Assembly: GCA_045605345.1 (NCBI GenBank)
Contig: JAZUPT010000016.1
Span: 4,363 to 68,362 of the forward strand
DNA: 64,000 bases
Direction: 5' to 3'
Origin: Candidatus Spyradenecus sp.
GTDB lineage: Bacteria; Verrucomicrobiota; Kiritimatiellia; RFP12; DVOR01
Position 1 is the stretch's first letter; the number at the start of each line of letters is the position of its first letter. Of this stretch, positions 45,483 to 62,795 are shown piece after piece. The position numbers and the translations under genes were made by a program. The notes under the pieces were generated by a model. The model was not told the origin of the DNA. It saw nothing but the letters and a program-made list of their open reading frames with translations, and did no database searches.

Positions 45483-47966
45483 TTAGTTCGCAGATTTGAA
45501 TTTTATGGTAAAGGTACCTGAAGAATTCCCGCCGTTATGTCCCGAACAATGGATGCGCAAGACGTAATCCTCTAGGCCTGCACGGAGTTGATTCACGCGT
45601 AACTGGTAAACATTATTACTCGTGCGCCCCCCTGTATAACCCTCATGCACATCCTCTGCCACCTTCTTTTCACCTTCAAAGAGCTCTACCGAGTGAATCT
45701 GAAGGGCATGCCGGCCAGATGTCCAGCAAATAGCAACTTCATAAACCCCCGCACGGGTGATATACTCAGAGACACTGAAATCAAGGTGCGTTTTTCCTTT
45801 GACGCCATTGAGGCTCCACGGCACCCCTGCGGTAGAAGCGAAAGCTTCGGGCCACAGCTTATGCACCTGCACGGCCAAGGAGAGCGCCTCAGAGACACGG
45901 CTCATCAACTTTTTCTTACGATTCGGCGAGAGGACACCGCGATTTAAGAAGCGCGTATTCAGGGCATCCAAGGCGGGGCTAGGATTGCGTTTTTCCGCCT
46001 CTGCGTCAAAGAAGAGCTGCCAACGCTTCAAGTAGTAGTCACGCATCAAGCCTGCGAGCTGACGGTGGGCGTAATCATTCAACGAACCTCCGCGCCCGCT
46101 CCACGTGGTATACATACGGCGAATTGCCTTCGCGGCGGCCTCACCACCTGTGCGACGAGCAATCTCCTCACGCCATTCAAGCGTCCAACGCGGTTCGCAG
46201 GCGAGGAGTGCATCCATTTCACGAATAGCCTCAAGGAAATAGGCCGATGCGGCACCATCCTGACCCTGAGCCAACAACGGACGCGCCAAGTCAGAGAGCG
46301 CCTGACGTGTGGCATCAATGAGATCATAACGGAAGGTTTCTTGTTGCAACAACTCCGGATTCTCCTTCGCGGCATTGGCGAGTTGGAGTGCGGCGCGAAG
46401 CGTATCCTTAGCGGAATAGTACATCTCACCGCTCGCCCACGAAGAAGCCTTGCGCGCCGTCCAGGAAGGTTTCGCACAAAAGATGCTTTCGGTGCAACCC
46501 TCTTGGTCACGCAAGGGTTTATAGACCGACTTCGTGAGCAGTTTTAAGGCCTGAAGAATGCGCGGCGTAACCGTGCCATAACGGCGGCGCGCGTAAGCCT
46601 TCAACCATGTATCATAATCCTGGGTGGACATCACCTTTTCACGTGGCATGAAGAAACGTTCGGTGAACAATTCGTAGAAGAGCGGATTCGTTTCAAGCCC
46701 CTCAGAGAGCAAGCCGTAGCCCACCATTGTGGAAGCGCCCGATTGTCGCGTCAATTCACCGAGCTTCATCAACATCTCCACGCCACCATAGAGACCGTGA
46801 TTGCCACCAAAGTTCAACAACTCACACCACACCCACGGGACCCCCTGGAACGAACGGTTGTAACGTTGGCCATTCGCCTGATCCTTCACAAGGGCCTCAA
46901 TGAGGGCGTACCGAGGATCAAGGCCGGCGAGGAGTTCGGCGCGAGGATTGCCATGCCATGCTTGGATGACCCAGATGGCGCCCGGCGAGGCGAGCTGTTG
47001 AGCGGCCTGAACGGCGCGAGCGCAAGCGGTGACATCTACCCCTGCGGTGCTGCCACCCTCATGGAAAAGGTCACCCGCGAAGGCATCGGCGCGTTCAATG
47101 CCGTAGACCGTGAGCAGATTCTTGTACCAGATGGCGGCAATCTTTGCATACGTTTCACTATTGGGCAAGAGCAAGGTCGGACGCACAAAGCCATCGACCC
47201 AACGCCCCTGATTCACGAATTTCGCATCGACATATTCCGTCTTGGAGAGATACTGCGGTAAATCGTGGGGCAAGAGACCCACAAACCCCTGCAAAATCGG
47301 TTTCATGCCGAGCGCCTTTGTCTCAGCAACAATGTAACGGCCCAACTCGGCATCCGCATCAATACGCTCCTGAGAGAGCGGGCCGCCGAGACCTTCTAAG
47401 TTACCCATATTCCACCATGCGGCGGCGGCTTCATCAGGGATAAAGGCGGCGATGCGTTCTTCGGGGTAACCCAATTCGCGCAAGGTGAGTTGCCACACCT
47501 TCGGGAGACCCGCTTGGACGAGCGGCATCTCAAAGCCATACAAAGCGAGACGGTCAATCTCCTCGCGCCATTCGGGTTTGCCCCAAAAGGCCATGGTGTA
47601 AGAGAGCGTGCAATAATTGTAGGCAACCGTGCGCGTAAAGGCCGGTGTGTAGTGATGCGTCTTGCGCGGTTGGGGCATCGGCACATTCAGACGGTTGCCA
47701 CACCACGACCAGTGCGCCTGCGCCACATCACGGAGGTAGCAACCCAAACCTGCGGCAGCCAAGCGTTTGTCGGGCGCGATAATCTGGATATTGCTTCCGC
47801 CTGCGGGCGCCACAGTGATGCCATCGGCAGATTCATCTACCGTAAACTGCACGCGTTCCCTCAAGGAGGGCGAGATACGCGCGGCGAGATCCGTCAACGC
47901 ATCAGCGTATGACCACCCTGCGGCAAATAGTGCCACGGCGGCGATTAGGGTTCGAAAAACGTTCAT
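45483..47966 (-). CDS. secreted glycoside hydrolase family 89 alpha-N-acetylglucosaminidase with C-terminal ~130-aa beta-sandwich (CBM-like) domain
   Basis: Signal peptide MNVFRTLIAAVALFAAGWSYA. WWNMGNLEGLGGPLS...GMKPILQGFVGLLP parallels the human NAGLU WGRMGNLHTWDGPLP...GMTPVLPAFAGHVP block, and the NAGLU N/TIM/C architecture is present. Confidence 0.8.
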   Translation of the reverse strand: MNVFRTLIAAVALFAAGWSYADALTDLAARISPSLRERVQFTVDESADGITVAPAGGSNIQIIAPDKRLAAAGLGCYLRDVAQAHWSWCGNRLNVPMPQPRKTHHYTPAFTRTVAYNYCTLSYTMAFWGKPEWREEIDRLALYGFEMPLVQAGLPKVWQLTLRELGYPEERIAAFIPDEAAAAWWNMGNLEGLGGPLSQERIDADAELGRYIVAETKALGMKPILQGFVGLLPHDLPQYLSKTEYVDAKFVNQGRWVDGFVRPTLLLPNSETYAKIAAIWYKNLLTVYGIERADAFAGDLFHEGGSTAGVDVTACARAVQAAQQLASPGAIWVIQAWHGNPRAELLAGLDPRYALIEALVKDQANGQRYNRSFQGVPWVWCELLNFGGNHGLYGGVEMLMKLGELTRQSGASTMVGYGLLSEGLETNPLFYELFTERFFMPREKVMSTQDYDTWLKAYARRRYGTVTPRILQALKLLTKSVYKPLRDQEGCTESIFCAKPSWTARKASSWASGEMYYSAKDTLRAALQLANAAKENPELLQQETFRYDLIDATRQALSDLARPLLAQGQDGAASAYFLEAIREMDALLACEPRWTLEWREEIARRTGGEAAAKAIRRMYTTWSGRGGSLNDYAHRQLAGLMRDYYLKRWQLFFDAEAEKRNPSPALDALNTRFLNRGVLSPNRKKKLMSRVSEALSLAVQVHKLWPEAFASTAGVPWSLNGVKGKTHLDFSVSEYITRAGVYEVAICWTSGRHALQIHSVELFEGEKKVAEDVHEGYTGGRTSNNVYQLRVNQLRAGLEDYVLRIHCSGHNGGNSSGTFTIKFKSAN

Positions 47967-50731: not shown

Positions 50732-50884
50732 CGTTTGTATCCTTTCGCATTACGAGTTCACACACGGGGTGACAACGCCTTCAGTATAGCAAAGCATTAG
50801 CGCAGGCTAATGCGACTTATTCCATCAATTTCACGCCTGTATACAAGACGTTACAGGTGGAGCGCCAAAGGAAGGCGGTGGATG

Positions 50885-51172
50885 ATGTGGGGGCGACGCC
50901 GCCCCCACACGCCCCTGCGGCAGGACTGAGTCCTGCACCCTACGCATCCTGACGGATGCTTTTACTGGTGCTCACGAGGAGGAAGCAGAAGTGAGCCGCC
51001 GAGGAGGTGACCCGTGGGGTGAGGCGGGGATGGCAGGCTACGGCCTGCCAATCAGATAGGTGAGCGGCTAACGCCGCAAAGCCGCGCAAGCGCGGCCCTC
51101 CTGAGGTGATGAGGTACATAGCCAGCTCACACTTGACTGTCACAAAGGCAGAAGTGAGTCGCCGAGGTTATA
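50885..51172. repeat. mosaic intergenic repeat cluster C (three-hairpin module, two GTGAGYCGCCG modules, inverted CTATC-hairpin module)
   Basis: 50887-50981 is homologous to 12523-12614. 50984-51030 and 51136-51170 carry cagaagtgagYcgccgagg. 51034-51066 ggcaggctacggcctgccaatcagataggtgagcgg is the reverse complement of cacctatctgagcggcaggctgttgcctgcc in the 38-kb tandem unit. Confidence 0.55.
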
Positions 51173-51206
51173 TCGTGGCACCGCCCACCGCGGCGGTGGT
51201 TAGCAC

Positions 51207-51239
51207 AAAAAAGAGGCACCCTTTCGGATGCCTCTTTTT
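51207..51239 (-). terminator. rho-independent terminator of pckG (bidirectional form)
   Basis: aaaaaagaggcaccc-tttc-ggatgcctcttttt is an A-run/hairpin/T-run, 19 nt after the pckG stop. Confidence 0.6.
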
Positions 51240-51257
51240 CGGTAATCGGTCGAAGAC

Positions 51258-53150
51258 TTACTTGTTGAGTGCTTCGGTGATTTCTGCGAGCTTAGCGGTG
51301 AGAGCCGCGGGAATGCGGTCGCCGAACTTCTCCCAGGATTCCTTCACGCCAGCAACTTCCTTCTTCCAACCTTCGACGTCGACGGTGAGGAGTTCCTTGA
51401 GCGTTTCAGGAGTGGTTTCGCAACCAGTCAAATCGATGGCATCATCGGTCGGCATGATACCGATCGGGGTGACCTTGGTGGAAGCCTTGCCTTCGATTGC
51501 TTCGCAGACCCACTTGAGGACGCGGCTGTTGTCGCCGAAGCCAGGCCACATGAAGTTGCCATCAGCATCCTTACGGAACCAGTTCACAAAGAAGACCTTC
51601 GGGAGCTTGTCAGCGGCAACCTTTTCGCCCATTGCGAGCCAGTGACCGAAGTAGTCAGCCATGTTGTAACCGCAGAAGGGCAACATAGCCATCGGGTCAC
51701 GACGCACCTGACCAATCTGGTCGGAGATCACAGCAGCGGTCACTTCGGAGCCAGCAGCGGAACCCATGTACACGCCGTGTGCCCAGTCGGTAGCCATGTT
51801 CACCAAGGGGATGGTGGAGGGGCGACGGCCGCCGAAGAGGATAGCGTCAACAGGAACGCCAGCAGGATCTTCCCATTCCTTAGCAATCACAGGGCACTGT
51901 TCTGCAGGAGCGGTGAAGCGAGAGTTCGGGTGAGCAGCCTTGATGAATTCGCCGGTGCCGTCAGCATTAGCGACCATCTTGTTGGGCTTTTCCTTGGAAG
52001 CGTAGCAGTCATTGCCCTTCCAGTCGATGCCGTGTGCAGGAGCGGGCACGCCCATGTCTTCCCACCAGATGTCGCCGTCGTCGGTAAGCACCACGTTGGT
52101 GAAGATGGTGTTAGCGCGGCAAGCTTCGAGTGCGTTGGGGTTGGAGATCTTGGAGGTACCAGGAGCAACGCCGAAGAAACCGTTTTCAGGGTTAATCGCG
52201 TGGAGCTTACCGGTGTTCTTGTCAACGTGGATCCATGCGATATCGTCACCGCAGGTTTCAACCTTCCAGCCGGGGAGCGTGGGGAGCATCATGGCGAGGT
52301 TGGTCTTACCGCAAGCAGACGGGAATGCAGCGGTCACAAAGTAGCTCTTGTTTTCAGGGCTGGTCAGCTTGAGGATGAGCATGTGTTCTGCCATCCAGCC
52401 TTCCTTCTTCGCGAGAGCGGAAGCGATACGGAGTGCGAAGCACTTCTTACCGAGGAGGGCGTTGCCGCCGTAACCAGAACCGAAGGACCAGATAGCTTCT
52501 TCGCCGGGATCGGTGAACTGAGTGATGTACTTCTTTTCCATCGGAGCGCAAGGCCATGCGACATCTTCCTGGCCGGGTTCAAGCGGAGCGCCCACAGAGT
52601 GGTAGCACTTCACATATTCAGCGCCCTTGTTGATGAGATCGAGAGCAGCGTCGCCCATGCGGGTCATGATGCGCATGTTGCAAACGACGTATGCAGAGTC
52701 GGTGAGTTCCACGCCGAGCTTGGAGAGAGGAGAACCGATGGGACCCATAGAGTAAGGGATGACGTAGAGGGTACGACCCTTCATGCAGCCCTTGTAGAGT
52801 TCCCACATGATCTTCTTCATTTCGGTGGGGTCCATCCAGTTGTTGGTCGGACCTGCGTCATCCTTGTTCTTGCAGCAGATGTAGGTGCGACCTTCCACGC
52901 GAGCAACGTCAGATTCGTGGGAGCGAACGAGATAGCAGCCAGGGCGCTTTTCTTCGTTGAGCTTAATCCATGCGCCGCGAGCGACTTCAGCCGCTGCGAG
53001 AGCATCGTATTCTTCCTGGGAACCGTTGCAGACAACGATTTTGTCGGGGGTGGCGTGATCAGCGAATTCCTTAACCCATGCCTTCAGCTCAGGGTTGGTG
53101 ATTTTATCAAGACAGCAGCAGCTCATGTTGCTTCTCCGGTTGTTGTTCAA
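51258..53150 (-). CDS. pckG: phosphoenolpyruvate carboxykinase (GTP)
   Basis: The N-terminus (NPELKAWVKEFADHATPDKIVVCNGSQEEYD) and the kinase-1a and nucleotide motifs (FPSACGKTN, NWFRKDADGNFMWPGFGDN) match GTP-PEPCK. The start is possibly MSCCCL (53126). Confidence 0.9.
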   Translation of the reverse strand: MNNNRRSNMSCCCLDKITNPELKAWVKEFADHATPDKIVVCNGSQEEYDALAAAEVARGAWIKLNEEKRPGCYLVRSHESDVARVEGRTYICCKNKDDAGPTNNWMDPTEMKKIMWELYKGCMKGRTLYVIPYSMGPIGSPLSKLGVELTDSAYVVCNMRIMTRMGDAALDLINKGAEYVKCYHSVGAPLEPGQEDVAWPCAPMEKKYITQFTDPGEEAIWSFGSGYGGNALLGKKCFALRIASALAKKEGWMAEHMLILKLTSPENKSYFVTAAFPSACGKTNLAMMLPTLPGWKVETCGDDIAWIHVDKNTGKLHAINPENGFFGVAPGTSKISNPNALEACRANTIFTNVVLTDDGDIWWEDMGVPAPAHGIDWKGNDCYASKEKPNKMVANADGTGEFIKAAHPNSRFTAPAEQCPVIAKEWEDPAGVPVDAILFGGRRPSTIPLVNMATDWAHGVYMGSAAGSEVTAAVISDQIGQVRRDPMAMLPFCGYNMADYFGHWLAMGEKVAADKLPKVFFVNWFRKDADGNFMWPGFGDNSRVLKWVCEAIEGKASTKVTPIGIMPTDDAIDLTGCETTPETLKELLTVDVEGWKKEVAGVKESWEKFGDRIPAALTAKLAEITEALNK

Positions 53151-53967: not shown

Positions 53968-54234
53968 TGTCTCTCTCCTTTTGTTGTTTAAGTGCTACGA
54001 GGACACGTCGTCCTCTCAACGCCACAAAGTATACGATAACTCCACAAATAAAATCAAGCACTTTTTGTAATTATTTCAAAAATAATTTTAAAACAATTGA
54101 AAAATCAGTACTTTCTAAAATCTACTTCTTCCTAAAATCACCCCTTTTAACAAAAACTGCGTATTAAGACCCCCCCATCTACTCCACAAAAAGACAAAAA
54201 AGACCTGCAAACTGACGCTTGCAGGTCTTCAAAT

Positions 54235-54309
54235 GGTCGGCCTCGCGGGGATCGAACCCGCGACCCCAACATTAAAAGTGTCGTGCTCTACCAACTGAGC
54301 TAGAGGCCG
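54235..54309 (-). tRNA. tRNA-Lys (anticodon TTT)
   Basis: Minus-strand sequence CGGCCTC-TA-GCTC-AGTTGGTA-GAGC-A-CGACA-CTTTTAA-TGTTG-GGGTC-GCGGG-TTCGATC-CCCGC-GAGGCCG-A-CCA folds as a cloverleaf with a 7-bp acceptor stem, a TTCGATC T-loop, the anticodon loop CTTTTAA and an encoded CCA. A hairpin (agacctgcaa...ttgcaggtct, 54201-54230) lies immediately 3'. Confidence 0.9.
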
Positions 54310-54330: not shown

Positions 54331-54530
54331 AACGACTCCTCAAGACGCAAGCAAATTCTTTACGCAAGCGGCGTGGCCGAGGGCTAATGCCGTGGGGATT
54401 AAACCGCAACACACGCCAGACACTCAAAAAAGAGGTTCAAGTCCCAAGTGTATGGATAAAATTCAATGTACGGGGAGTTCTTCCTTTACTTTTGCATAGC
54501 TTTGGTTAGGAAAAAGGGCGAAATCAGCTT

Positions 54531-54620
54531 AAGTTTGTAACAAACTGGATTTAAGTTTGTAACAAACTGAGATTGAGTTTGTAACAAACTGGATTTGAGT
54601 TTGTAACAAACTGAGATTGA
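54531..54620. repeat. four tandem 22-23-bp direct repeats, each with palindrome GTTTGTAACAAAC, alternating TGGATTT / TGAGATTG tails (2 x 45-bp super-unit)
   Basis: aagtttgtaacaaactggattt / aagtttgtaacaaactgagattg / agtttgtaacaaactggatttg / agtttgtaacaaactgagattg. The repeats lie in an AT-rich segment about 220 bp upstream of tRNA-Lys. Confidence 0.8.
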
Positions 54621-55104
54621 AAACTGCCCTTATTGCTTAGTTATTTTGTCTCACATGAGATGGTAATTGGGAAGAAGTGTGGATTCTCTAAAGCTAAAAA
54701 CGTGCGTTAAGCCTATGCGCTTAAGTTTTTTGTGTGGGTGGTATGCTTTTAGCACGCTACATGTTTTATTGTTTCTACTACATAGGTTGCACATTTGCGC
54801 AAAATTCTTGCCTTACCTTAATGGAAGGACTATCCTATTTCGCCATTTTTCAAGTTCAGCATCTAATTCACGCGTTGCTCGAAAACTTATGCTGCACTAA
54901 CATCTACACCACAAGGTACATGGAATATATCCTAAACCTTATGCGTTGAAACACCTTAAATGATGCTTTTTGAATTTAAAAATTGAAGTCGACGAATTAA
55001 CTCGTTGTCTTACCTTTATAAGCCTTTTATTCTTTTACCCACACACTTGGAACTTGAACCAAAAAAGATTACCAAAAGGGAATTTAGAATTCACGAAAAA
55101 CACG

Positions 55105-55146
55105 ATCCAAACAAAAAGATAACCTCACGGCACCGTGAGGTTATCT
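55105..55146 (-). terminator. rho-independent terminator of the giant CotH-family gene
   Basis: A perfect 14-bp stem agataacctcacgg-ca-ccgtgaggttatct is followed on the minus strand by ttttgtttgg, 19 nt after the stop. Confidence 0.6.
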
Positions 55147-55164
55147 TTGGAAAAGTGGCGTTCT

Positions 55165-58100
55165 TTAGCGTTCAATCTTCGCCTTGAAGAAACGCGGAAC
55201 GACGCTTGACTTCGTCGCGCGCGGTGCGAGTTGTGCCTCACCCTCCGAGCCAAAATCCTGTTCTTGGGCAACTTCAGTCCATGCGGTATCGCTCAAGTTT
55301 TCCTTGGCGTAGAGTTTGATTTGCCCCTTGATAGAGCCTGTCTTTTCCTTACCATTCACCGTAAGGGTCGCAGTAAGGGTAACATTCCCCTCTGCATCAA
55401 TGGTGAAGGCTGCAATATCCAGTTCCGTGGCCGCTGCCATATCAGCGATCGGTGCTTCATCCAAGAGATAGGCGAGTTCGTAGTCGGCTGCAGCGGTGAC
55501 TTCTGCGAGTGCCGCAGCTTTCACCTTACCATCGGTGATGGCTTCATTCAACCACGTCGCAATTTCCGCCGGCAAGACATTATCCACTGCGACATCGCCA
55601 TCTGCCTTCTTGAGGACGATAGACGTTGCTTCCGTATTCGGTTCAGGAATCCACGTCTTATCATCGCCATAGACGGCAAGACCGATGACAAAGCAAGGAT
55701 CGTTGTTTTTGACGTATTCCTTACGATCATACGCCAAGACAAGCGACTTACCACCCAAGAGCACCGTGCCAGGCGGCAAGGTGAAGACATCTTCAGAATC
55801 CTCAGGGAGTGTCGAGACATCCATCATGCCCTCCACGGTCCAACCGCTCAAGTCGATGGAATCAACATTGGGGTTCGTGAGCTTAATGCCGCCTTCAACC
55901 TTTTCCATCAAGATGGGCGCGAAGGTTTCAGGATGCGCAGCAGGAATGCCCGCATTCTTATCAGAAGCATAACCCGTTTCCCACTCGGAATTATTAATGG
56001 AGTGAGTTTCATAGAGGTGTGTACGACGCGGCACAACGTACTTTTCCCACAAATCTTCAAAAGCCTCATCCCAACCAAGGATGTGATCCCAAACGTAAAT
56101 CACGGTATCCTTGTACTCGGTGCCCCACTTGGCGCGGTCAAGTTCTGCATCGGCAGCGACCACTTCCTTGAAAAGCGTGACGTAATCCCAGAAAGGCGTC
56201 TCCTCTTGCGCGGTGTCAGGCGCCTTGAGGTGTTCATCCATCAAGGTGCGCAAACGGCGCAAGTACATCTGACGAATCTCAGGATTCTGCCAAAGGGCTT
56301 CCACAGCGTAGTTGCCGCTACCAACGGTAGCCCCACTCTTCGCATGCGCACGCACCTTCCAACCGCTGTAGAAGGGATGCGACTTGAATTCGTCGGCTGT
56401 CGGACGAAGACCGATGCGACCTGTTGCGCGATCATCACCAAAATACCATGCGCCAAAGGAGAGGTTATGGTCATAGGCGAGTGGCATCCAGACGTCATTG
56501 CCGTTCTTATCCCAATAGAGGCTGATATTCGCCCAGATGTCGTCCGCTTCCTGCGTAATACGTGCCATCGCGAGATAGTTAATCCACGCAGGGATATCAA
56601 AGGAATCATAGACTGCATTCTTCAATGCTTCGCGTTTAGCAACGATGTCGGCAGAGACTTCAGTGCCCGCCTTTTCAGCAGCGAGTTCAGCTTCGGCCAC
56701 GGCCTGAGAGGTGGAGAAGGTTTGTGCCCATGCAACCATGGGTGCATAAGCCGTTGGACTGGTTTCATCGCCATCATCCGGGGTCTTCTTTTCCACAGAT
56801 CCTGCGGTAGTGCCAACATTTGCGGAAATCGTGCCCACATTCTTATAACCATAACCCATGGGGTCAAGGCCGTAGTAGTCCTCAATGAGTTCGTCCGTAA
56901 AACGATTTGAGTGGAAGGCGAGCTGATAGAATTCGCCATTCAACTGCAACCGCACCGGATAGTGGAAGGGCACCTTATTGCCCGCATTACGCCACATGTG
57001 GAACGAGAGGCTCTGACGGATAAAAGTCGGGTCTGCATATTCCGCCGTAAAAGAGGTCTTGCGGATTTCCTTGAGTTTCGTCCCCTTCTTGCCTTCGAGC
57101 ATATTCTTGCAGGTGAGGGGTTGGCACTTACTGAAACGCAAACCGTGCGACTTCTTGGGGAAGTGTGCAGAGGTGTTGCCGCGCAGGTCAATGCGCACGT
57201 TGTCATAATACGTATCAGTCTGAGCATCGTAGATACCGCAACGTGCGCCCAAAGGATACGCCTTTGAAATGTCGGCATAGTCCTTATCCATCAAGTCAAG
57301 ATTCGTGCTCCCCTCCACAAAGAGATGGAAGGTCTGCAACTTCTCATGGAGCGACGTCTGGTCTGCGGTTGGTTCCACAATCGTACCATACCAATTCGGG
57401 CAGTCATCGGGATTATTGCGCGAAGGCGAAATCCACTGGCGCCCTGCCCCATCGGTAATCCGCGCACCGAACTGAATGAGCAAGCCATTCGCAGGAAGAT
57501 CTTTCGCAGGGATCACGCCCACATAAGCAGGGAACAACTTCTCCACTTCAATGGTTTCTCCCGCTTCATCCTCTTCTTCCACGGTGCGTTGGAAGGCCTC
57601 TTCGGTGAGAGCCATCTCCACATACTTCGTTTCGCCGAAGTTGCAACGATACATGAGTTCCACCTTTGTAATCGCATTTTCTGCGTCATCAGCAATCGGG
57701 TGTACATCTAAAACAACCGTGTAATCTTCGCCAGGCGTTGCCATCGGCTCGGGCAAATAGTAACCAAAGTCTTCAAAGACTTCCTTGTTCGACGGACCGA
57801 TATTCGGGCCATACGGAATTGCAGTGGAGGTGTTGTTCTCAGTGCCAGGGGTCATATCTGGCATGATGACGCGCGTTTCACCTGCAATTTCGCCAGCGAG
57901 TTCTGCCGTAATCAAGACCGACATGCGGCTTGCGTCTTCATCTGCCGTCAACGTCCAAGCCAAAGTGCCAGCCGTAGCACCATCCAATTCAATCGGCGCG
58001 TCCAATTCAATCGCTTTACCTTCCCACGCCAAAGCCAACAAACCTGCGGTCTCAGGTGCAGAGAAGGTCAAAGTCGCGCCCTCTGCATATTCAGGCAAGG

Positions 58101-60132
58101 TCACCGTCATTTCACCCGTCACCGTAGAGGGCAATGTCTCCACGGATTCATAGACATCCGCAGAATCATCCGTGCCGGCTTCGGTGACCTTCGTCGTCGC
58201 GAGCGTTGAAGCATTGTACGCCTTCGCCACTTCGCGTGCAGGGAGCACACCAGAGAAGATGTTGATTTCCGACATCTCACCACGGAAACCGCGCCAATAT
58301 TTATCGTGTGCACCCCCAAAGCGACGCGTTGTTATTGCCGGAATGTAACCTGTAATAACCTGCGAAGCAACGGCCACACCATTGATGTAGAGCGTTCCTG
58401 TTTGAGTCTTCGCATCAATCGAGAAGGTTACATGTGTCCACTCATTCACTGGCAGCACCTCCTGACCTGCGAAAGCCACATTTACCTTTGTCTCACCACC
58501 GCGCTGAACATAAATCTTTTGTTTTTGACCATCGTCATTTGTACCAACCAAGAGCAGATAACCATTCTCGTCCTGCGAACCATTACGCGAATCCATTAAG
58601 ACAACCGCTTCATTGCCCGTCGCATCAAAAGAGGTGGGCTTCACCCAGAAGGCAAGCGTTTCACCAACAGAGACAAGGGTGTCCGTGGCTTGAAGGGAGT
58701 TCTCAACATAGGCTCCAATTGCCTGATAGTCCTCATCCCCCGCGCCCACAGTTGCAAAAGTGTAGGTATCTGTTTCACCGTTGTAAGTCAGGTACTTCTT
58801 CGTTGTCTCATTCACGCGAGACACCAAACCGCCATACTGCGATGTAATATTACGCGAGGCAGAATTTTCATCAGCCAACCAAGAGACTTCAGTTGCACTC
58901 AACCCACGATTAAAGACCTTAATGTCCGCAATCTGGCCATAGAACGTGTGCCACGAGGTGGAGTCATAGGCGTGACCAAAGCAATAAGGGATGGTATTCT
59001 GCAATGCGCAGTCAAACGGCATCTCCGTTGTGATTTCGGCCTTACCATCGATGTAAAGCGTTAAGGCATCACCCGCCTTCTGCCCTGCCACCAACACCAG
59101 ATGGTGCCACTTGTTATCGGCGTAATTGGCATCCGTATTGGAGAGGAATTGCGCAGAATTGCTCGCATTACGCGGTTGAATGGTGATTTGGTTCTCATCA
59201 TTCAAGAACAGGTTTATGCCCATCTTATTGCCCGTCTTTGATGGACGGCATTCGAAGAGCGGCATCCCACGTCCTGTGGTGTTATCGGTAATATCTTCAG
59301 TCGTAGGTTCGGAACGGAACCAGAGCGAAACAGCGTACATACCTTCAGGATAAGCCTGAGGCGTCATCTGCACACCCTTATTGCCAGAGGTCATCCCAGA
59401 GAAGTCATACACATTCGCCTGGAGTATGCCATCTGCATCCTTTGAGCCCGTGTAATCTTCCAACACCGCGACGGCGGCGTCTACTGTAGGCGTGAGCGTC
59501 ACCTGACCTGCGACATCACTTGGCAACTGCGTTGTGCTCACGGTCAAACGGCCTACGCCAGTTTGCTTTTCGCCATCACCCAATTGATAGGTGTATTCAG
59601 AAGCTTCATTCACCACAGGAATGCGGTTATACGCATCCCCAGGACCAAAACTTTGGTCGTCAGGCAAATCCACCGGCACAATCAAGGTCTGCAGAAGCGT
59701 CTTTTGGTCAGCACGATAGAGGGCCACATTGGGGAACTTCTTAGGGTTGACCTTGGAGGGGAAGACCATCACATCCTTGTCGTACACCGCGACCTTTTCG
59801 CCATCCCAATAATTCGGATAGGCTTCGCTCGTGTACACAAGTGTACGTTCACCAGGACCTAATTCGCGGTCACACAAGATGCGACGATTCTTTTTCTTGT
59901 CTTCCTTACCGCGATTCCAACGAATCAAGGCAAAATCCTTCAAATTCACCGTTTCGGTGGTGCTGGTATTCGTCAATTCAATCCAACCCGCCTCCTTCCC
60001 ATTCGGGTCAAGCGCATCCGGGCGAGGGCAAATTTCTGTAATACGCAATGTCGCAAAGAGGCTCGCTGCCATCGTTGCACCCAATACACTGCTCAACATC
60101 TTCAACGTCTTCATCTTTGAGCATCCTTCCAT
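55165..60132 (-). CDS. giant (1655 aa) secreted multidomain CotH-family (atypical kinase fold) protein: signal peptide - lamin-tail domain - two LamG/ConA-like lectin domains - CotH domain - second lamin-tail domain - C-terminal tail
   Basis: Signal peptide MKTLKMLSSVLGATMAASLFA. LTD ITEICPRPDALDPNGKEAGWIELTNTS...LKDFAL. LamG blocks WHHLVLVAGQ...LYIDGK...GQIADIKVFNRGLSATEV and EWTHVTFSID...LYINGV...GEMSEINIFSGVLPAREV. CotH block YYDNVRIDLRGNTSAHFPKKSHGLRF...YDHNLSFG. Second LTD IDLSGWTVEG...FTLPPGTVLLGGKSLVLA. Confidence 0.75.
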   Translation of the reverse strand: MEGCSKMKTLKMLSSVLGATMAASLFATLRITEICPRPDALDPNGKEAGWIELTNTSTTETVNLKDFALIRWNRGKEDKKKNRRILCDRELGPGERTLVYTSEAYPNYWDGEKVAVYDKDVMVFPSKVNPKKFPNVALYRADQKTLLQTLIVPVDLPDDQSFGPGDAYNRIPVVNEASEYTYQLGDGEKQTGVGRLTVSTTQLPSDVAGQVTLTPTVDAAVAVLEDYTGSKDADGILQANVYDFSGMTSGNKGVQMTPQAYPEGMYAVSLWFRSEPTTEDITDNTTGRGMPLFECRPSKTGNKMGINLFLNDENQITIQPRNASNSAQFLSNTDANYADNKWHHLVLVAGQKAGDALTLYIDGKAEITTEMPFDCALQNTIPYCFGHAYDSTSWHTFYGQIADIKVFNRGLSATEVSWLADENSASRNITSQYGGLVSRVNETTKKYLTYNGETDTYTFATVGAGDEDYQAIGAYVENSLQATDTLVSVGETLAFWVKPTSFDATGNEAVVLMDSRNGSQDENGYLLLVGTNDDGQKQKIYVQRGGETKVNVAFAGQEVLPVNEWTHVTFSIDAKTQTGTLYINGVAVASQVITGYIPAITTRRFGGAHDKYWRGFRGEMSEINIFSGVLPAREVAKAYNASTLATTKVTEAGTDDSADVYESVETLPSTVTGEMTVTLPEYAEGATLTFSAPETAGLLALAWEGKAIELDAPIELDGATAGTLAWTLTADEDASRMSVLITAELAGEIAGETRVIMPDMTPGTENNTSTAIPYGPNIGPSNKEVFEDFGYYLPEPMATPGEDYTVVLDVHPIADDAENAITKVELMYRCNFGETKYVEMALTEEAFQRTVEEEDEAGETIEVEKLFPAYVGVIPAKDLPANGLLIQFGARITDGAGRQWISPSRNNPDDCPNWYGTIVEPTADQTSLHEKLQTFHLFVEGSTNLDLMDKDYADISKAYPLGARCGIYDAQTDTYYDNVRIDLRGNTSAHFPKKSHGLRFSKCQPLTCKNMLEGKKGTKLKEIRKTSFTAEYADPTFIRQSLSFHMWRNAGNKVPFHYPVRLQLNGEFYQLAFHSNRFTDELIEDYYGLDPMGYGYKNVGTISANVGTTAGSVEKKTPDDGDETSPTAYAPMVAWAQTFSTSQAVAEAELAAEKAGTEVSADIVAKREALKNAVYDSFDIPAWINYLAMARITQEADDIWANISLYWDKNGNDVWMPLAYDHNLSFGAWYFGDDRATGRIGLRPTADEFKSHPFYSGWKVRAHAKSGATVGSGNYAVEALWQNPEIRQMYLRRLRTLMDEHLKAPDTAQEETPFWDYVTLFKEVVAADAELDRAKWGTEYKDTVIYVWDHILGWDEAFEDLWEKYVVPRRTHLYETHSINNSEWETGYASDKNAGIPAAHPETFAPILMEKVEGGIKLTNPNVDSIDLSGWTVEGMMDVSTLPEDSEDVFTLPPGTVLLGGKSLVLAYDRKEYVKNNDPCFVIGLAVYGDDKTWIPEPNTEATSIVLKKADGDVAVDNVLPAEIATWLNEAITDGKVKAAALAEVTAAADYELAYLLDEAPIADMAAATELDIAAFTIDAEGNVTLTATLTVNGKEKTGSIKGQIKLYAKENLSDTAWTEVAQEQDFGSEGEAQLAPRATKSSVVPRFFKAKIER

Positions 60133-60261
60133 TCTAACTGTACCAATAAAGACTCGTCTAACACGTTGTCTTTACGAAACTTACATCTTTTAAATAATAA
60201 CAAAGCGGCGCAGTTTTCACAACCGCACCGCCTCATTTTAAGGACTCTACTCGCTCGCGTA

Positions 60262-61209
60262 TTACTTTGTATTCATACTACCAAAAGCTTTTAGAATACC
60301 CTCAGCGATTTGATTTGCAATCTTTTTCTGTTGCGCCACATCGGTTATGCGCGCAAAATCTTCTTCATTTGTGATGAATCCGGTCTCAATCAAAATCGCA
60401 GGTGCGGGCGTATCACGCAAGACCTTAAAGTGTGCATGACGCACGCCACGATCTGCCACCGTTATTGCGCCAGACGTCGCCTTATCCTTCGCCAAAAGTG
60501 CCTGATGGACATAGTACGCCAAGCGCGTAGAAGTCACCACATGCGCATGCCCTGCGAGTGGTCCGCGCGCTGGCGAATTCGGAAGCGTCCCTTCGCAACC
60601 AAAAGCAGGCAAGGTGTAGGTTTCCACACCCTTTGCCTCTGGATTTGCCGAAGCATTCACGTGAATACTCACAAAGGCATCAATCTTCAACGATGCGCCC
60701 AACTGCGTACGCTCATCCAATGTCCGCGTTGTCTTCTCATTCGGGCGCGTGAGATTCACATTGTGTCCCTTTGCCTTCAAGATTGCTTGCACTTCGCGCG
60801 CAATGGCGAGCGTAATCTTCTGTTCGTGCACATCCCCCTTTCGGCAACCGCTATCCGTGCCGCCATGACCAGGATCAATGAGCAGATTGAGCGTCCGTTT
60901 CGATGCCACTGGCGCCAAAAGCGCCGCCCGCAAGATGCGAATATCATCACGGCTCAAGTTACGCGTTCCTGCGGGACGATTGAGGTAGTAGGAAATCCCA
61001 TCAATGAAGGCGGGACGTTGGCCGACCGTAAATTCAAACGTTTGTACAGGCGAACCTGCCGGCGCGACCAAGCGAACCTTCCCCTCCTCCACCGTTCGCT
61101 CCGCATCGGGGATTCCCAATTCTCGGGTGGTGGTTCGGTAAGCCGAATTACACCCCAAAATCAATAACAAGGCAGAAAGGCAACACATCTGTAAAGGAAA
61201 CTGCATCAA
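60262..61209 (-). CDS. N-acetylmuramoyl-L-alanine amidase (Amidase_3 family) lipoprotein
   Basis: Lipoprotein signal LLLILGCNS. LIDPGHGGTDSG...FVSIHVNA...GVETY matches the Amidase_3 zinc site. Confidence 0.8.
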   Translation of the reverse strand: MMQFPLQMCCLSALLLILGCNSAYRTTTRELGIPDAERTVEEGKVRLVAPAGSPVQTFEFTVGQRPAFIDGISYYLNRPAGTRNLSRDDIRILRAALLAPVASKRTLNLLIDPGHGGTDSGCRKGDVHEQKITLAIAREVQAILKAKGHNVNLTRPNEKTTRTLDERTQLGASLKIDAFVSIHVNASANPEAKGVETYTLPAFGCEGTLPNSPARGPLAGHAHVVTSTRLAYYVHQALLAKDKATSGAITVADRGVRHAHFKVLRDTPAPAILIETGFITNEEDFARITDVAQQKKIANQIAEGILKAFGSMNTK

Positions 61210-61275: not shown

Positions 61276-61788
61276 TCAAATGGATTCGGGTTGCAATGCC
61301 AAGACACCCGTTGTGCGATGGATATGCGTGATTGCCATCGCCAAGGCATCTGCCGCGTCATTCTGGATGGGCGGAGGTAACGAGAGAATGCGCGCGACCA
61401 TCGCCTGCACCTGTGCCTTTTCAGCGGCACCAGTCCCCGTCACGGCGCGTTTAATTTCCGACGGTGCATACTCATACACAGGGATGCCGCGCTTGGCACA
61501 GTTCATCACCACCACGCCACGAGCATGACACAAAATCATCGCCGTACGCGCATTTTTGGCATAAAAGACCGTCTCTAACGCAGCTTCTGTGGGGTGAAAG
61601 GTATCCAACAGTCGCCCCACTTCTTCATCAATCATCTGCAAAGCCTGCGACATTGGGCGACTCTGCGGCACGCGAATCGGCGCAAAGTGCAATGCCTTAC
61701 GCACCGATCCCAAGACCTGTACAACCCCCACGCCAGTGGAACGCAACGAGGTATCAAAGCCAATCACGATTCGTTCAAGCGCCGCCAT
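61276..61788 (-). CDS. ruvC: crossover junction endodeoxyribonuclease RuvC
   Basis: IGFDTSLRSTGVGV (catalytic Asp), EAALETVFYAKN, and the C-terminal DAADALAMAITH. Confidence 0.85.
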   Translation of the reverse strand: MAALERIVIGFDTSLRSTGVGVVQVLGSVRKALHFAPIRVPQSRPMSQALQMIDEEVGRLLDTFHPTEAALETVFYAKNARTAMILCHARGVVVMNCAKRGIPVYEYAPSEIKRAVTGTGAAEKAQVQAMVARILSLPPPIQNDAADALAMAITHIHRTTGVLALQPESI

Positions 61789-62795
61789 TAAAAGAGCTCC
61801 ATCTCTGGCCAGAAACGTGTCGGCTCCACACGCTCCAACTGCGCCTGATCCGCTTCTGAAAGCGCACTGAAGAAGTTGAACCCTGTCATCTCCTCAATTG
61901 CGTCAATTGAGGTCAGGCAGTACCGAGGATGCTTGTCACTGCGAATATTTTGCGGCATATATGCGCCGATTGCGCGCAAACGCCCCTCCTTAACTGAAGC
62001 GATAATCTTAAAGAATCCTTTCGGGATGCGTGCCTTACCTCGACTGATGTACGTTTGCTTTGCGGCGGGGACTGGGCCCGTAATCACCCACAGTTCCACG
62101 TCCTGCTTCGTCAACTCTTTCGCAACAATCTGTTCAAGAATCCGCCACGGACCACGATTCAAATCGGGTGTCTGTGGCACAATGTTACTCATGAAGAAAG
62201 TTTCGCGTTGGGCCGCCTTTCCATAGCGGGTGGCGATGAGATAATTCGGTGCCATATGCCCGCGGTCATAACCCGTGCGCGTGTAATCACTTGGGTCAGG
62301 ACAGTCAGGTGCTTCGAGGTCAACCATAAAGGCGGGGCGCTCTGGGGGTTCATCCAAGACCTTTGACGTGGGCACCGTGTACACCGCATACGCAGGATGA
62401 CCGCACATCGGTGACCAACCCAACCAATACCCTTGGCGTTTTAGGAGTTTAATATCCTTGACGGCCTTCTTGCTATTGGTAATCTCAATCTTACCGAAGA
62501 AAAACTTATTTTGCGTTGGCAGCTTCGCCGAATACGGCACCGACGCATCACGGCCTGTTAGTCCAATTGCGTCCGTAAAGCCCGCCGTCACAAGCCCCAA
62601 TTTCTCTAATGAGGTCTCCAATGCACCAAATTCCGTACGCCTTGCCGCTGGCAAGTGCGCAAACCAATTGCCAAACCCTAAGACAATCACCAGAGCCACC
62701 GCCGAGAGAATCCCCTTCATGCGTCGGGATAAACGAAAAGAGGAGGAAGCCGATGGCTTCTTTTTAGACTTTTTAGGAGCAGCCTTACGCGCCAT
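61788..62795 (-). CDS. membrane-anchored DNA/RNA non-specific endonuclease (Endonuclease_NS/NUC family)
   Basis: Lys-rich N-terminus MARKAAPKKSKKKPS, a TM segment ILSAVALVIVLGFGNWF, and the active-site DRGHMAPN (the DRGH motif of Serratia-type nucleases). Confidence 0.7.
   Translation of the reverse strand: MARKAAPKKSKKKPSASSSFRLSRRMKGILSAVALVIVLGFGNWFAHLPAARRTEFGALETSLEKLGLVTAGFTDAIGLTGRDASVPYSAKLPTQNKFFFGKIEITNSKKAVKDIKLLKRQGYWLGWSPMCGHPAYAVYTVPTSKVLDEPPERPAFMVDLEAPDCPDPSDYTRTGYDRGHMAPNYLIATRYGKAAQRETFFMSNIVPQTPDLNRGPWRILEQIVAKELTKQDVELWVITGPVPAAKQTYISRGKARIPKGFFKIIASVKEGRLRAIGAYMPQNIRSDKHPRYCLTSIDAIEEMTGFNFFSALSEADQAQLERVEPTRFWPEMELF

Follow-up and report, generated by a model that had tools for sequence, protein, structure and literature searches.

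What does a very large, apparently exported protein built around the fold of a Bacillus spore-coat kinase do in a hindgut bacterium? The question is raised by one gene in a 64-kb stretch of DNA from Candidatus Spyradenecus sp. (contig JAZUPT010000016.1; hereafter the window), an uninterrupted open reading frame (ORF) of 1655 codons on the reverse strand (55165-60132) that joins a CotH kinase-family domain to lamin-tail domains (LTDs) and to laminin G (LamG) or concanavalin A (ConA)-like modules. The answer towards which we lean is an exported multi-module protein with a working CotH kinase core and a LamG targeting arm, the alleles of which are exchanged by recombination. An identical NCBI-derived protein (P0001) begins at Met7 (60112-60114), the probable true start of the gene, giving 1649 amino acids (aa). 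Close relatives come from Kiritimatiellae metagenome-assembled genomes (MAGs) recovered from the cecum of roe deer, the colon of buffalo and the rectum of yak; a 'Candidatus Spyradenecus' MAG is a further source. The host-associated source that a first-pass annotation of this stretch had presumed is borne out by these MAGs of the ruminant hindgut.

The modules follow one another in the order leader, LTD, LamG, LamG, mid1, mid2, CotH, LTD and C-terminal module, with positions in the window as follows:

55165-60132, reverse strand: whole ORF, 1655 codons.
60052-60114, reverse strand: predicted Sec-type signal peptide (aa 7-27, MKTLKMLSSVLGATMAASLFA); the sole hydrophobic segment, at the same position in all homologues.
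59776-60054, reverse strand: LTD1 (aa 27-119); PF00932, 27.7 bits alone; among the most conserved parts.
58882-59385, reverse strand: LamG or ConA-like module 1, LamG1 (aa 250-417); PF13385, 65.8 bits.
58225-58692, reverse strand: LamG or ConA-like module 2, LamG2 (aa 481-636); PF13385, 81.3 bits; the most variable module.
57895-58125, reverse strand: mid1, a beta-sandwich spacer (aa ~670-746) in AlphaFold model m37a5a0277108; local predicted confidence (pLDDT) 83-96.
57376-57723, reverse strand: mid2, a beta-sandwich (aa ~804-919) in the AlphaFold model; accompanies CotH in relatives P0001-P0060.
56002-57246, reverse strand: CotH atypical-kinase domain (aa ~963-1377); PF08757 match at aa 981-1303.
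55576-55887, reverse strand: LTD2 (aa 1416-1519); PF00932, 27 bits alone; highly conserved.
55168-55572, reverse strand: C-terminal module (aa 1521-1655, 135 aa), ending RFFKAKIER; the motif recurs in homologues.

The first-pass annotation had read this protein as LTD-LamG-LamG-CotH-LTD. That order stands in Pfam (PF00932, PF13385, PF08757), where CotH, Laminin_G_3 and, at the level of the whole protein, LTD score over their cut-offs; the parts that had been overlooked are the mid1/mid2 region and the C-terminal module of 135 aa. Both Laminin_G_3 copies lie well over the PF13385 cut-off of 27.6 bits. Each LTD copy scores about 27-28 bits alone, under the cut-off of 34.3 bits, whereas the whole-protein score of 45.8 passes, and the LTD domains are clean Pfam matches in relatives. 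An NCBIfam match to the fimbrial protein TafC over LamG2 (42 bits against a cut-off of 410) was discarded as generic LamG similarity.

The roughly 340 aa between LamG2 and CotH are modelled by AlphaFold as the two beta-sandwiches mid1 and mid2, and a fold search with the model of aa 641-945 gave only generic immunoglobulin-like or glycoside hydrolase family 2 (GH2)-accessory beta-sandwich matches, at template-modelling (TM) scores of about 0.2, and no family was assigned. In relatives P0001-P0060 mid2 travels with CotH; therefore the family core is leader-LTD-...-mid2-CotH(-LTD). The subgroup to which the present protein belongs has LamG1, LamG2 and mid1 as an insertion separating LTD1 from mid2. 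Variants of the RFFKAKIER ending (FFKxK, FFRLR, FYRL) close most homologues, while no other ORF in the window carries an FF[KR]x[KR][IL] ending. The idea that the C-terminal module is a shared sorting signal found no support: a profile search, of limited sensitivity, returned only seven short proteins, which lie on contigs of 0.8-2.2 kb, have no Pfam domains and are probably fragments of the same CotH family.

Membership of the CotH domain in its family is well supported. The PF08757 match reaches 83.2-87.5 bits against a cut-off of 23.8 and spans profile positions 1-269 of 322. The full protein matched no PDB sequence at an E-value of 0.01; a profile built from 15 sequences of the CotH segment does match B. 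cereus CotH (5jd9_A, E 4.4e-24). The AlphaFold model of the domain (pLDDT 78.7, predicted TM-score 0.85) retrieves 5jda/5jd9 in Foldseek with an E-value of 1.6e-14, a probability of 1.0 and TM-scores of 0.50-0.67, PI3-kinases being a distant second. The assignment to CotH made in the first-pass annotation is thus upheld by the HMM score over cut-off and by a predicted fold like that of 5JDA/5JD9. A variable helical segment lies inside the domain at aa ~1111-1176.

Whether such a domain could still catalyse phosphotransfer was assessed from an alignment of 67 relatives (24-100% identity) and the B. cereus CotH sequence, in which the following residues stand out:

57151-57156, reverse strand: K993-K994, aligned with B. 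cereus CotH K55-K56; kept in 99% and 96% of the 67 relatives.
56542-56544, reverse strand: D1197, putative catalytic Asp, aligned with B. cereus D224; invariant (67/67).
56527-56529, reverse strand: N1202, catalytic-loop Asn, aligned with B. cereus N229; invariant (67/67).
56470-56472, reverse strand: D1221, putative metal-binding Asp, aligned with B. cereus D247; invariant (67/67).

The intactness of the catalytic residues had been left as a check by the first-pass annotation; as judged by alignment, the catalytic Asp, the Asn and the metal-binding Asp are all present and invariant, as are D1034, R1039 and N1065, and K993-K994 are candidate nucleotide-binding lysines. In B. subtilis CotH the mutants D228Q and D251A are catalytically inactive (PMC7821199), and B. 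cereus D224 and D247 would correspond to B. subtilis Asp228 and Asp251, because the same 23-residue spacing separates the pair of Asp in the two proteins. The lowest dN/dS (ratio of nonsynonymous to synonymous divergence) in the gene is found in the CotH N-lobe (0.05-0.07), and across 28 orthologues no segment is better conserved than the CotH core and the two LTDs. Because of the fold match, the conserved catalytic residues and the low N-lobe dN/dS, an active CotH phosphotransferase seems more likely than a dead or decayed scaffold.

The same residues bear on an alternative that we regard as possible but doubtful, namely that the protein is a non-catalytic adhesin or structural envelope protein in which the CotH fold serves as a binding or scaffold module and the LamG modules attach it to host mucus, food particles or other cells. 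Relatives with as little as 24% identity still have the catalytic Asp, the Asn and the metal-binding Asp, and 96-99% of the relatives keep the Lys pair, which argues against this, as does the strongest purifying selection in the gene acting on the kinase N-lobe; to keep exactly these active-site residues is unexpected for a mere scaffold. The lectin-type modules do suit an adhesin, and a scaffold role of the CotH fold has been proposed for the CotH invasins of Mucorales. The latter, such as Rhizopus CotH3, served the first-pass annotation as the analogy for a conjectured role in host interaction or adhesion; they are CotH-family cell-surface proteins of a host-associated organism, but are eukaryotic and differ in architecture. 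The GRP78-binding surface peptide of Rhizopus CotH3, which we take to be MGQTNDGAYRDPTDNN, has no counterpart here that would favour an adhesin (best ungapped match anywhere in the window protein, 4 of 16 residues). Cellulosomal CotH proteins, for their part, are still described as possibly structural (PMC12484212).

Where the protein acts is suggested by its leader. The N-terminal segment MKTLKMLSSVLGATMAASLFA is the only hydrophobic stretch of the protein; outside it no 19-residue window exceeds 1.5 on the Kyte-Doolittle scale, and no further membrane segment or C-terminal anchor was found. In every homologue the leader stops just before the conserved LRITEICPRP...GWIEL start of LTD1, and signal-peptide cleavage would fall just before LRITEICPRP. 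No lipobox is present at the leader end, which reads SLFA/TLRITEIC, without L-x-x-C. The signal peptide named in the first-pass annotation thus recurs as a predicted Sec-type leader, the sole hydrophobic segment, at one position across homologues. We infer that the protein is Sec-exported and soluble, with the envelope or the extracellular space as its final location.

A third explanation, which we judge distinctly unlikely, is an exported kinase-fold enzyme with a non-protein substrate. It might phosphorylate a glycan or another polymer, or be a nucleotide-dependent transferase of some other sort, with an extracellular polysaccharide bound by the LamG modules as its target. The apparently intact active-site residues and the presence of two ConA-like modules of a carbohydrate-binding type in the same polypeptide would both suit it. 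Sugar kinases (Fam20B) and AMPylases (SelO) are among the kinase-fold families akin to CotH, which counts in its favour. A secreted CotH protein also contributes to Pel-polysaccharide-dependent aggregation in S. intermedius (PMC12345266). Against it, every CotH enzyme yet characterised has proteins as its substrate, which it phosphorylates on Ser/Thr (PMC7821199), and polysaccharide-synthesis genes adjoin the CotH gene in none of the loci examined.

The one unusual trait of the protein, absent from the earlier reading, is its mosaic variation. Alleles and flanking genes on metagenome contigs, which can be chimeric, were compared with the window in terms of amino-acid identity and synonymous divergence (dS):

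L001, syntenic: flanks 98-100% aa identity, dS 0.02-0.13 (RuvC 0.30); CotH allele 88% aa identity, dS 0.31 overall.
L007, syntenic: flanks 92-100% aa identity; CotH allele 85% aa identity.
L015, syntenic: flanks 95-99.5% aa identity; CotH allele 72% aa identity.
L008, upstream flank only: flanks 70-87% aa identity, dS >1.9; CotH allele 81-82% aa identity.
L017, non-syntenic: flanks not comparable; CotH allele 82% aa identity.

On the three syntenic contigs a single flanking gene falls below 95% protein identity, the overall range being 92-100%. Against L001, LamG2 shares 59% aa identity, with a dS of about 2 and indels. Along the L015 allele dS is 0.6-2.4 from LTD1 to CotH and 0.30-0.36 in LTD2 and the C-terminus, a step that suggests a breakpoint within the gene. 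In L008, conversely, most modules differ from the window at a dS of 0.36-0.8, well under that of its flanks, and the C-terminal part of CotH (CotH_C) has a dS of 0.17 against non-syntenic L017 and of 1.0 against same-lineage L015.

When 28 orthologues were clustered per module at 80% identity, CotH formed a single allele class, LTD1 and LTD2 two each, mid2 five, LamG1 eight, the C-terminus nine, LamG2 ten and mid1 eleven. These classes occur shuffled: LamG2 classes A to E all turn up alongside LamG1 class A, and two of them, A and B, alongside LamG1 class B as well. The allele differences include indels and saturated synonymous change, and domain-wide dN/dS is below 0.4 in every module. Such a pattern reads as the exchange of old, divergent alleles under purifying selection and not simply as fast sequence evolution, and the gene itself as a mosaic hotspot at which strains appear to swap whole modules by recombination around a conserved LTD-CotH-LTD core. 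Diversifying or frequency-dependent pressure on an exposed protein that binds a ligand would be expected to leave this pattern. The concentration of surface-antigen-like variation in the LamG, mid1 and C-terminal modules would suit a non-catalytic adhesin as well. A diversity-generating retroelement (DGR) was rejected as the source of the hypervariability: the 64-kb window contains no template-like repeat and no second copy of any part of the gene, although its other ORFs were not scanned for a reverse transcriptase.

Taken together, these observations would fit the following mechanism. A Sec leader would export the protein as a soluble envelope or extracellular protein. The conserved core LTD-mid2-CotH-LTD would be its catalytic part, a phosphotransferase using a nucleotide triphosphate and a divalent metal, and the two LamG/ConA-like modules its targeting part, binding a glycan or glycoprotein ligand and bringing the kinase to its substrate. 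The variable arm (LamG1, LamG2, mid1 and the C-terminal module) may owe its variation to targeting, or to exposure to ligand polymorphism, phage or host antibody. Divergent alleles or segments would be traded by homologous recombination within and between related lineages, each under purifying selection. Of these elements we infer the catalytic activity, the LamG ligand binding, the substrate and the selective agent. A bolder version, to which we give little credence, places the kinase or phosphotransferase outside the cell and has it guided by its lectin modules to host mucin, dietary glycoprotein or the surface of a neighbour, which it would modify; the targeting modules (LamG1, LamG2, mid1 and the C-terminus) would be interchangeable cassettes that gut Kiritimatiellae lineages swap with one another.

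Several points weigh against an exported working kinase with exchanged alleles. We know of no ATP source in the periplasm or outside the cell; the phosphate donor is the main weakness of this explanation, and the export of the protein into such a compartment speaks for an adhesin. For this reason both the adhesive or structural alternative and that of a non-protein substrate retain some probability. The characterised CotH acts inside the Bacillus mother cell. No conserved partner, substrate or operon gene was found at the loci examined, distant orthologues lying amid unrelated housekeeping genes. The population comparisons rest on metagenome contigs, which are possibly chimeric, and positive selection is not demonstrated, since dN/dS stays below 0.4 everywhere. 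Finally, it is by their identical spacing, and not by a checked alignment, that the B. subtilis residues are mapped onto B. cereus.

How far, then, does this protein depart from known CotH systems? With Bacillus CotH (B. subtilis; B. cereus PDB 5JD9/5JDA) it shares the Pfam family, the predicted fold, the aligned Asp/Asn/Asp and the Lys pair. Bacillus CotH, however, is a single domain of ~360 aa without a signal peptide that acts in the mother cell on CotB and CotG, whereas the window protein has a predicted signal peptide, 1,649 aa and eight modules, belongs to a lineage in which sporulation is not known, is ~17% identical in its kinase domain and carries the extra variable helical segment in that domain. 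No CotG- or CotB-like gene is found among the neighbours of the window CotH gene (amidase, RuvC, rubrerythrin, phosphoenolpyruvate carboxykinase (PEPCK)). The Bacillus-type spore-coat class is ruled out by leader, modules, Kiritimatiellae origin and neighbours.

The protein's own family is formed by the LTD-CotH multidomain proteins of the Planctomycetes-Verrucomicrobia-Chlamydiae (PVC) group and other bacteria, for which leader-LTD...mid2-CotH(-LTD) is common to P0001-P0060. NCBI lists members as 'CotH kinase family protein' or 'LamG-like jellyroll fold domain-containing protein'. LTD and CotH occur together in all seven relatives sampled and LamG in one of the seven; LamG_3 is nevertheless found in many of the P0001-P0060 relatives, distant ones included. 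The CotH profile retrieves 13,877 cluster representatives (1,105 at E <=1e-30), many of them 1,000-4,700 aa long. The exact order LTD-LamG-LamG-mid1-mid2-CotH-LTD-C-terminal was seen in only ~40 gut Kiritimatiellae-type sequences, and the literature searched shows no member of the LTD-CotH multidomain family with a tested function.

Nearest by functional description are three groups of secreted proteins, for none of which a substrate is known. In Bacteroides, the 'domain group 3' variable proteins targeted by DGRs exceed 2,000 aa and combine CotH-kinase-like with carbohydrate-binding motifs (bioRxiv 10.1101/2024.11.15.621889). They are likewise giant proteins of gut bacteria with a hypervariable ligand-binding part; there, however, a retroelement diversifies a C-terminal variable region, whereas in the window gene whole divergent modules are apparently exchanged. 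SIR_1594 of S. intermedius is a secreted CotH and FN3 protein encoded in a pel cluster (PMC12345266). In it, as in the cellulosomal CotH-dockerin proteins, a CotH domain predicted to be secreted is joined, outside sporulation, to beta-sandwich or carbohydrate-related modules; SIR_1594 belongs to a polysaccharide operon and the cellulosomal proteins bear dockerins, whereas the window gene stands alone with LTD and LamG. Together, the Bacteroides DGR group 3, SIR_1594 and cellulosomal CotH proteins are the nearest functional descriptions available.

These comparisons show that the novelty claimed in the first-pass annotation was overstated. A relative of 85% identity is already named 'CotH kinase family protein [Kiritimatiellae bacterium]' in NCBI, LTD with CotH is present in all seven relatives sampled and LamG reaches distant ones; moreover, a secreted CotH domain beside carbohydrate-binding parts is known from Bacteroides DGR targets, cellulosomes and the Streptococcus pel cluster. 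The protein belongs to a large, already annotated family, and strain-level module exchange is the only feature possibly noteworthy to specialists.

Secreted bacterial CotH-domain proteins are very numerous (~14,000 clusters at 50% identity), none having a known substrate, and this locus offers a clean test case: the active site is intact by alignment, the presumed catalytic core is separate from a variable lectin-type arm, and natural alleles differ chiefly in the putative targeting modules. Were the kinase to work extracellularly, phosphorylation outside the cell would extend to gut commensals, and activity would explain why two unrelated diversification routes, Bacteroides DGRs and module exchange, act on CotH giants. 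If it is inactive, the protein would be one more variable adhesin. Should it be a lectin-guided kinase, it would represent a recombination-based counterpart of the DGR-diversified Bacteroides CotH proteins, and secreted CotH kinases that can be retargeted would count among the tools of gut bacteria in general, so far without having been recognised as such.

Does the locus itself offer a partner or a vehicle? The gene is predicted to be a standalone transcription unit, because two strong hairpin-plus-T-run terminators bracket it:

55115-55148, reverse strand: intrinsic terminator of the CotH gene, a 15-bp stem then a T-run; -24 kcal/mol, z -5.3.
about 60194-60237, reverse strand: terminator hairpin of the upstream amidase gene; -25.3 kcal/mol, z -6.1.

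The monocistronic unit with its own strong terminator proposed in the first-pass annotation agrees with these hairpins, which flank the gene at 55115-55148 and about 60199-60237. A promoter-like TTGTGA-17-TATTAT, a match to the consensus only, overlaps the amidase-gene terminator hairpin (60194-60237). Antisense to the CotH gene lies an ORF of 559 aa (55231-56910, forward strand), which we take to be a by-product of the long coding frame opposite.

Upstream of the CotH gene lie an Amidase_3 gene, RuvC, a non-specific endonuclease and an unassigned ORF; downstream lie tRNA-Lys, rubrerythrin, GTP-PEPCK, a nitroreductase, UvrB and a GH89-type alpha-N-acetylglucosaminidase (NAGLU). Orthologues of 44-82% identity occupy at least four other, unrelated housekeeping contexts, and because these contexts differ, the genomic neighbourhood gives no partner or substrate. 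The adjacency to an AT-rich island and a tRNA that had been pointed out is real: a non-coding spacer with a GC content of 0.36-0.43 (54361-55113) lies between the CotH terminator and tRNA-Lys(UUU) at 54234-54309, downstream of the gene.

This arrangement raises the possibility, very improbable in our view, that a mobile element or the remnant of a phage integrated at tRNA-Lys and carried the gene in as cargo, the AT-rich spacer being a piece of that element. Besides the spacer and tRNA adjoining the gene, the same-lineage contigs L007 and L015 lack the whole spacer, which is therefore an indel, and in different lineages the gene occupies different genomic sites. Yet no integrase, transposase, tRNA-end direct repeat or phage gene was found nearby, all neighbours being housekeeping genes (amidase, RuvC, rubrerythrin, PEPCK, UvrB); relative to the tRNA the spacer is 5', whereas integration usually occurs 3'; the gene is present with or without the spacer; and the repeat motif of the spacer is absent from viral contigs.

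The repeats in question form an array at 54529-54620 of four tandem 22-bp units, each with the near-palindrome AGTTTGTAACAAACT, for which the array gives eight strand matches against 0.04 expected and the rest of the window none; the L001 array has five units. Beyond the tRNA, no Rfam family exceeded its threshold in the spacer and no convincing ORF was seen there, and the search of viral contigs with the repeat gave no match. The array looks like either a series of sites at which a dimeric protein binds DNA or an iteron-like remnant.

Some further features of the surrounding sequence deserve mention. An exported Amidase_3 gene (60262-61209, reverse strand) lies directly upstream of the CotH gene, and an Endonuclease_NS gene (61788-62795, reverse strand), whose product has a hydrophobic N-terminal segment, shares a single base with the start of RuvC; endonuclease, amidase and CotH genes make up a small run of envelope or exported proteins amid repair genes. 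Synteny breaks off at the 3' side of the CotH gene: the L008 upstream genes match the window, while downstream of its CotH gene (L008, 9972-15971) are, by eye, a secreted GH16-glucanase-like protein and two ExbB/ExbD-like membrane proteins. In L014, L016 and L017 both flanks of the CotH gene differ from the window. The intergenic region between GTP-PEPCK and the nitroreductase (50870-51300) is 38-53% identical to L001, with indels, although the genes on either side are 98-100% identical, and is a second local replacement hotspot. RuvC (61276-61788, reverse strand) is 100% identical in protein to L001 and L007, yet has a dS of 0.30-0.41, several-fold over most neighbours; either its constraint is unusually strong or this gene is also exchanged. 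Finally, an 827-aa alpha-N-acetylglucosaminidase with a signal peptide is encoded at 45483-47966 (reverse strand; NAGLU_N/NAGLU/NAGLU_C by synteny with L001), which fits a host-glycan-degrading lifestyle.

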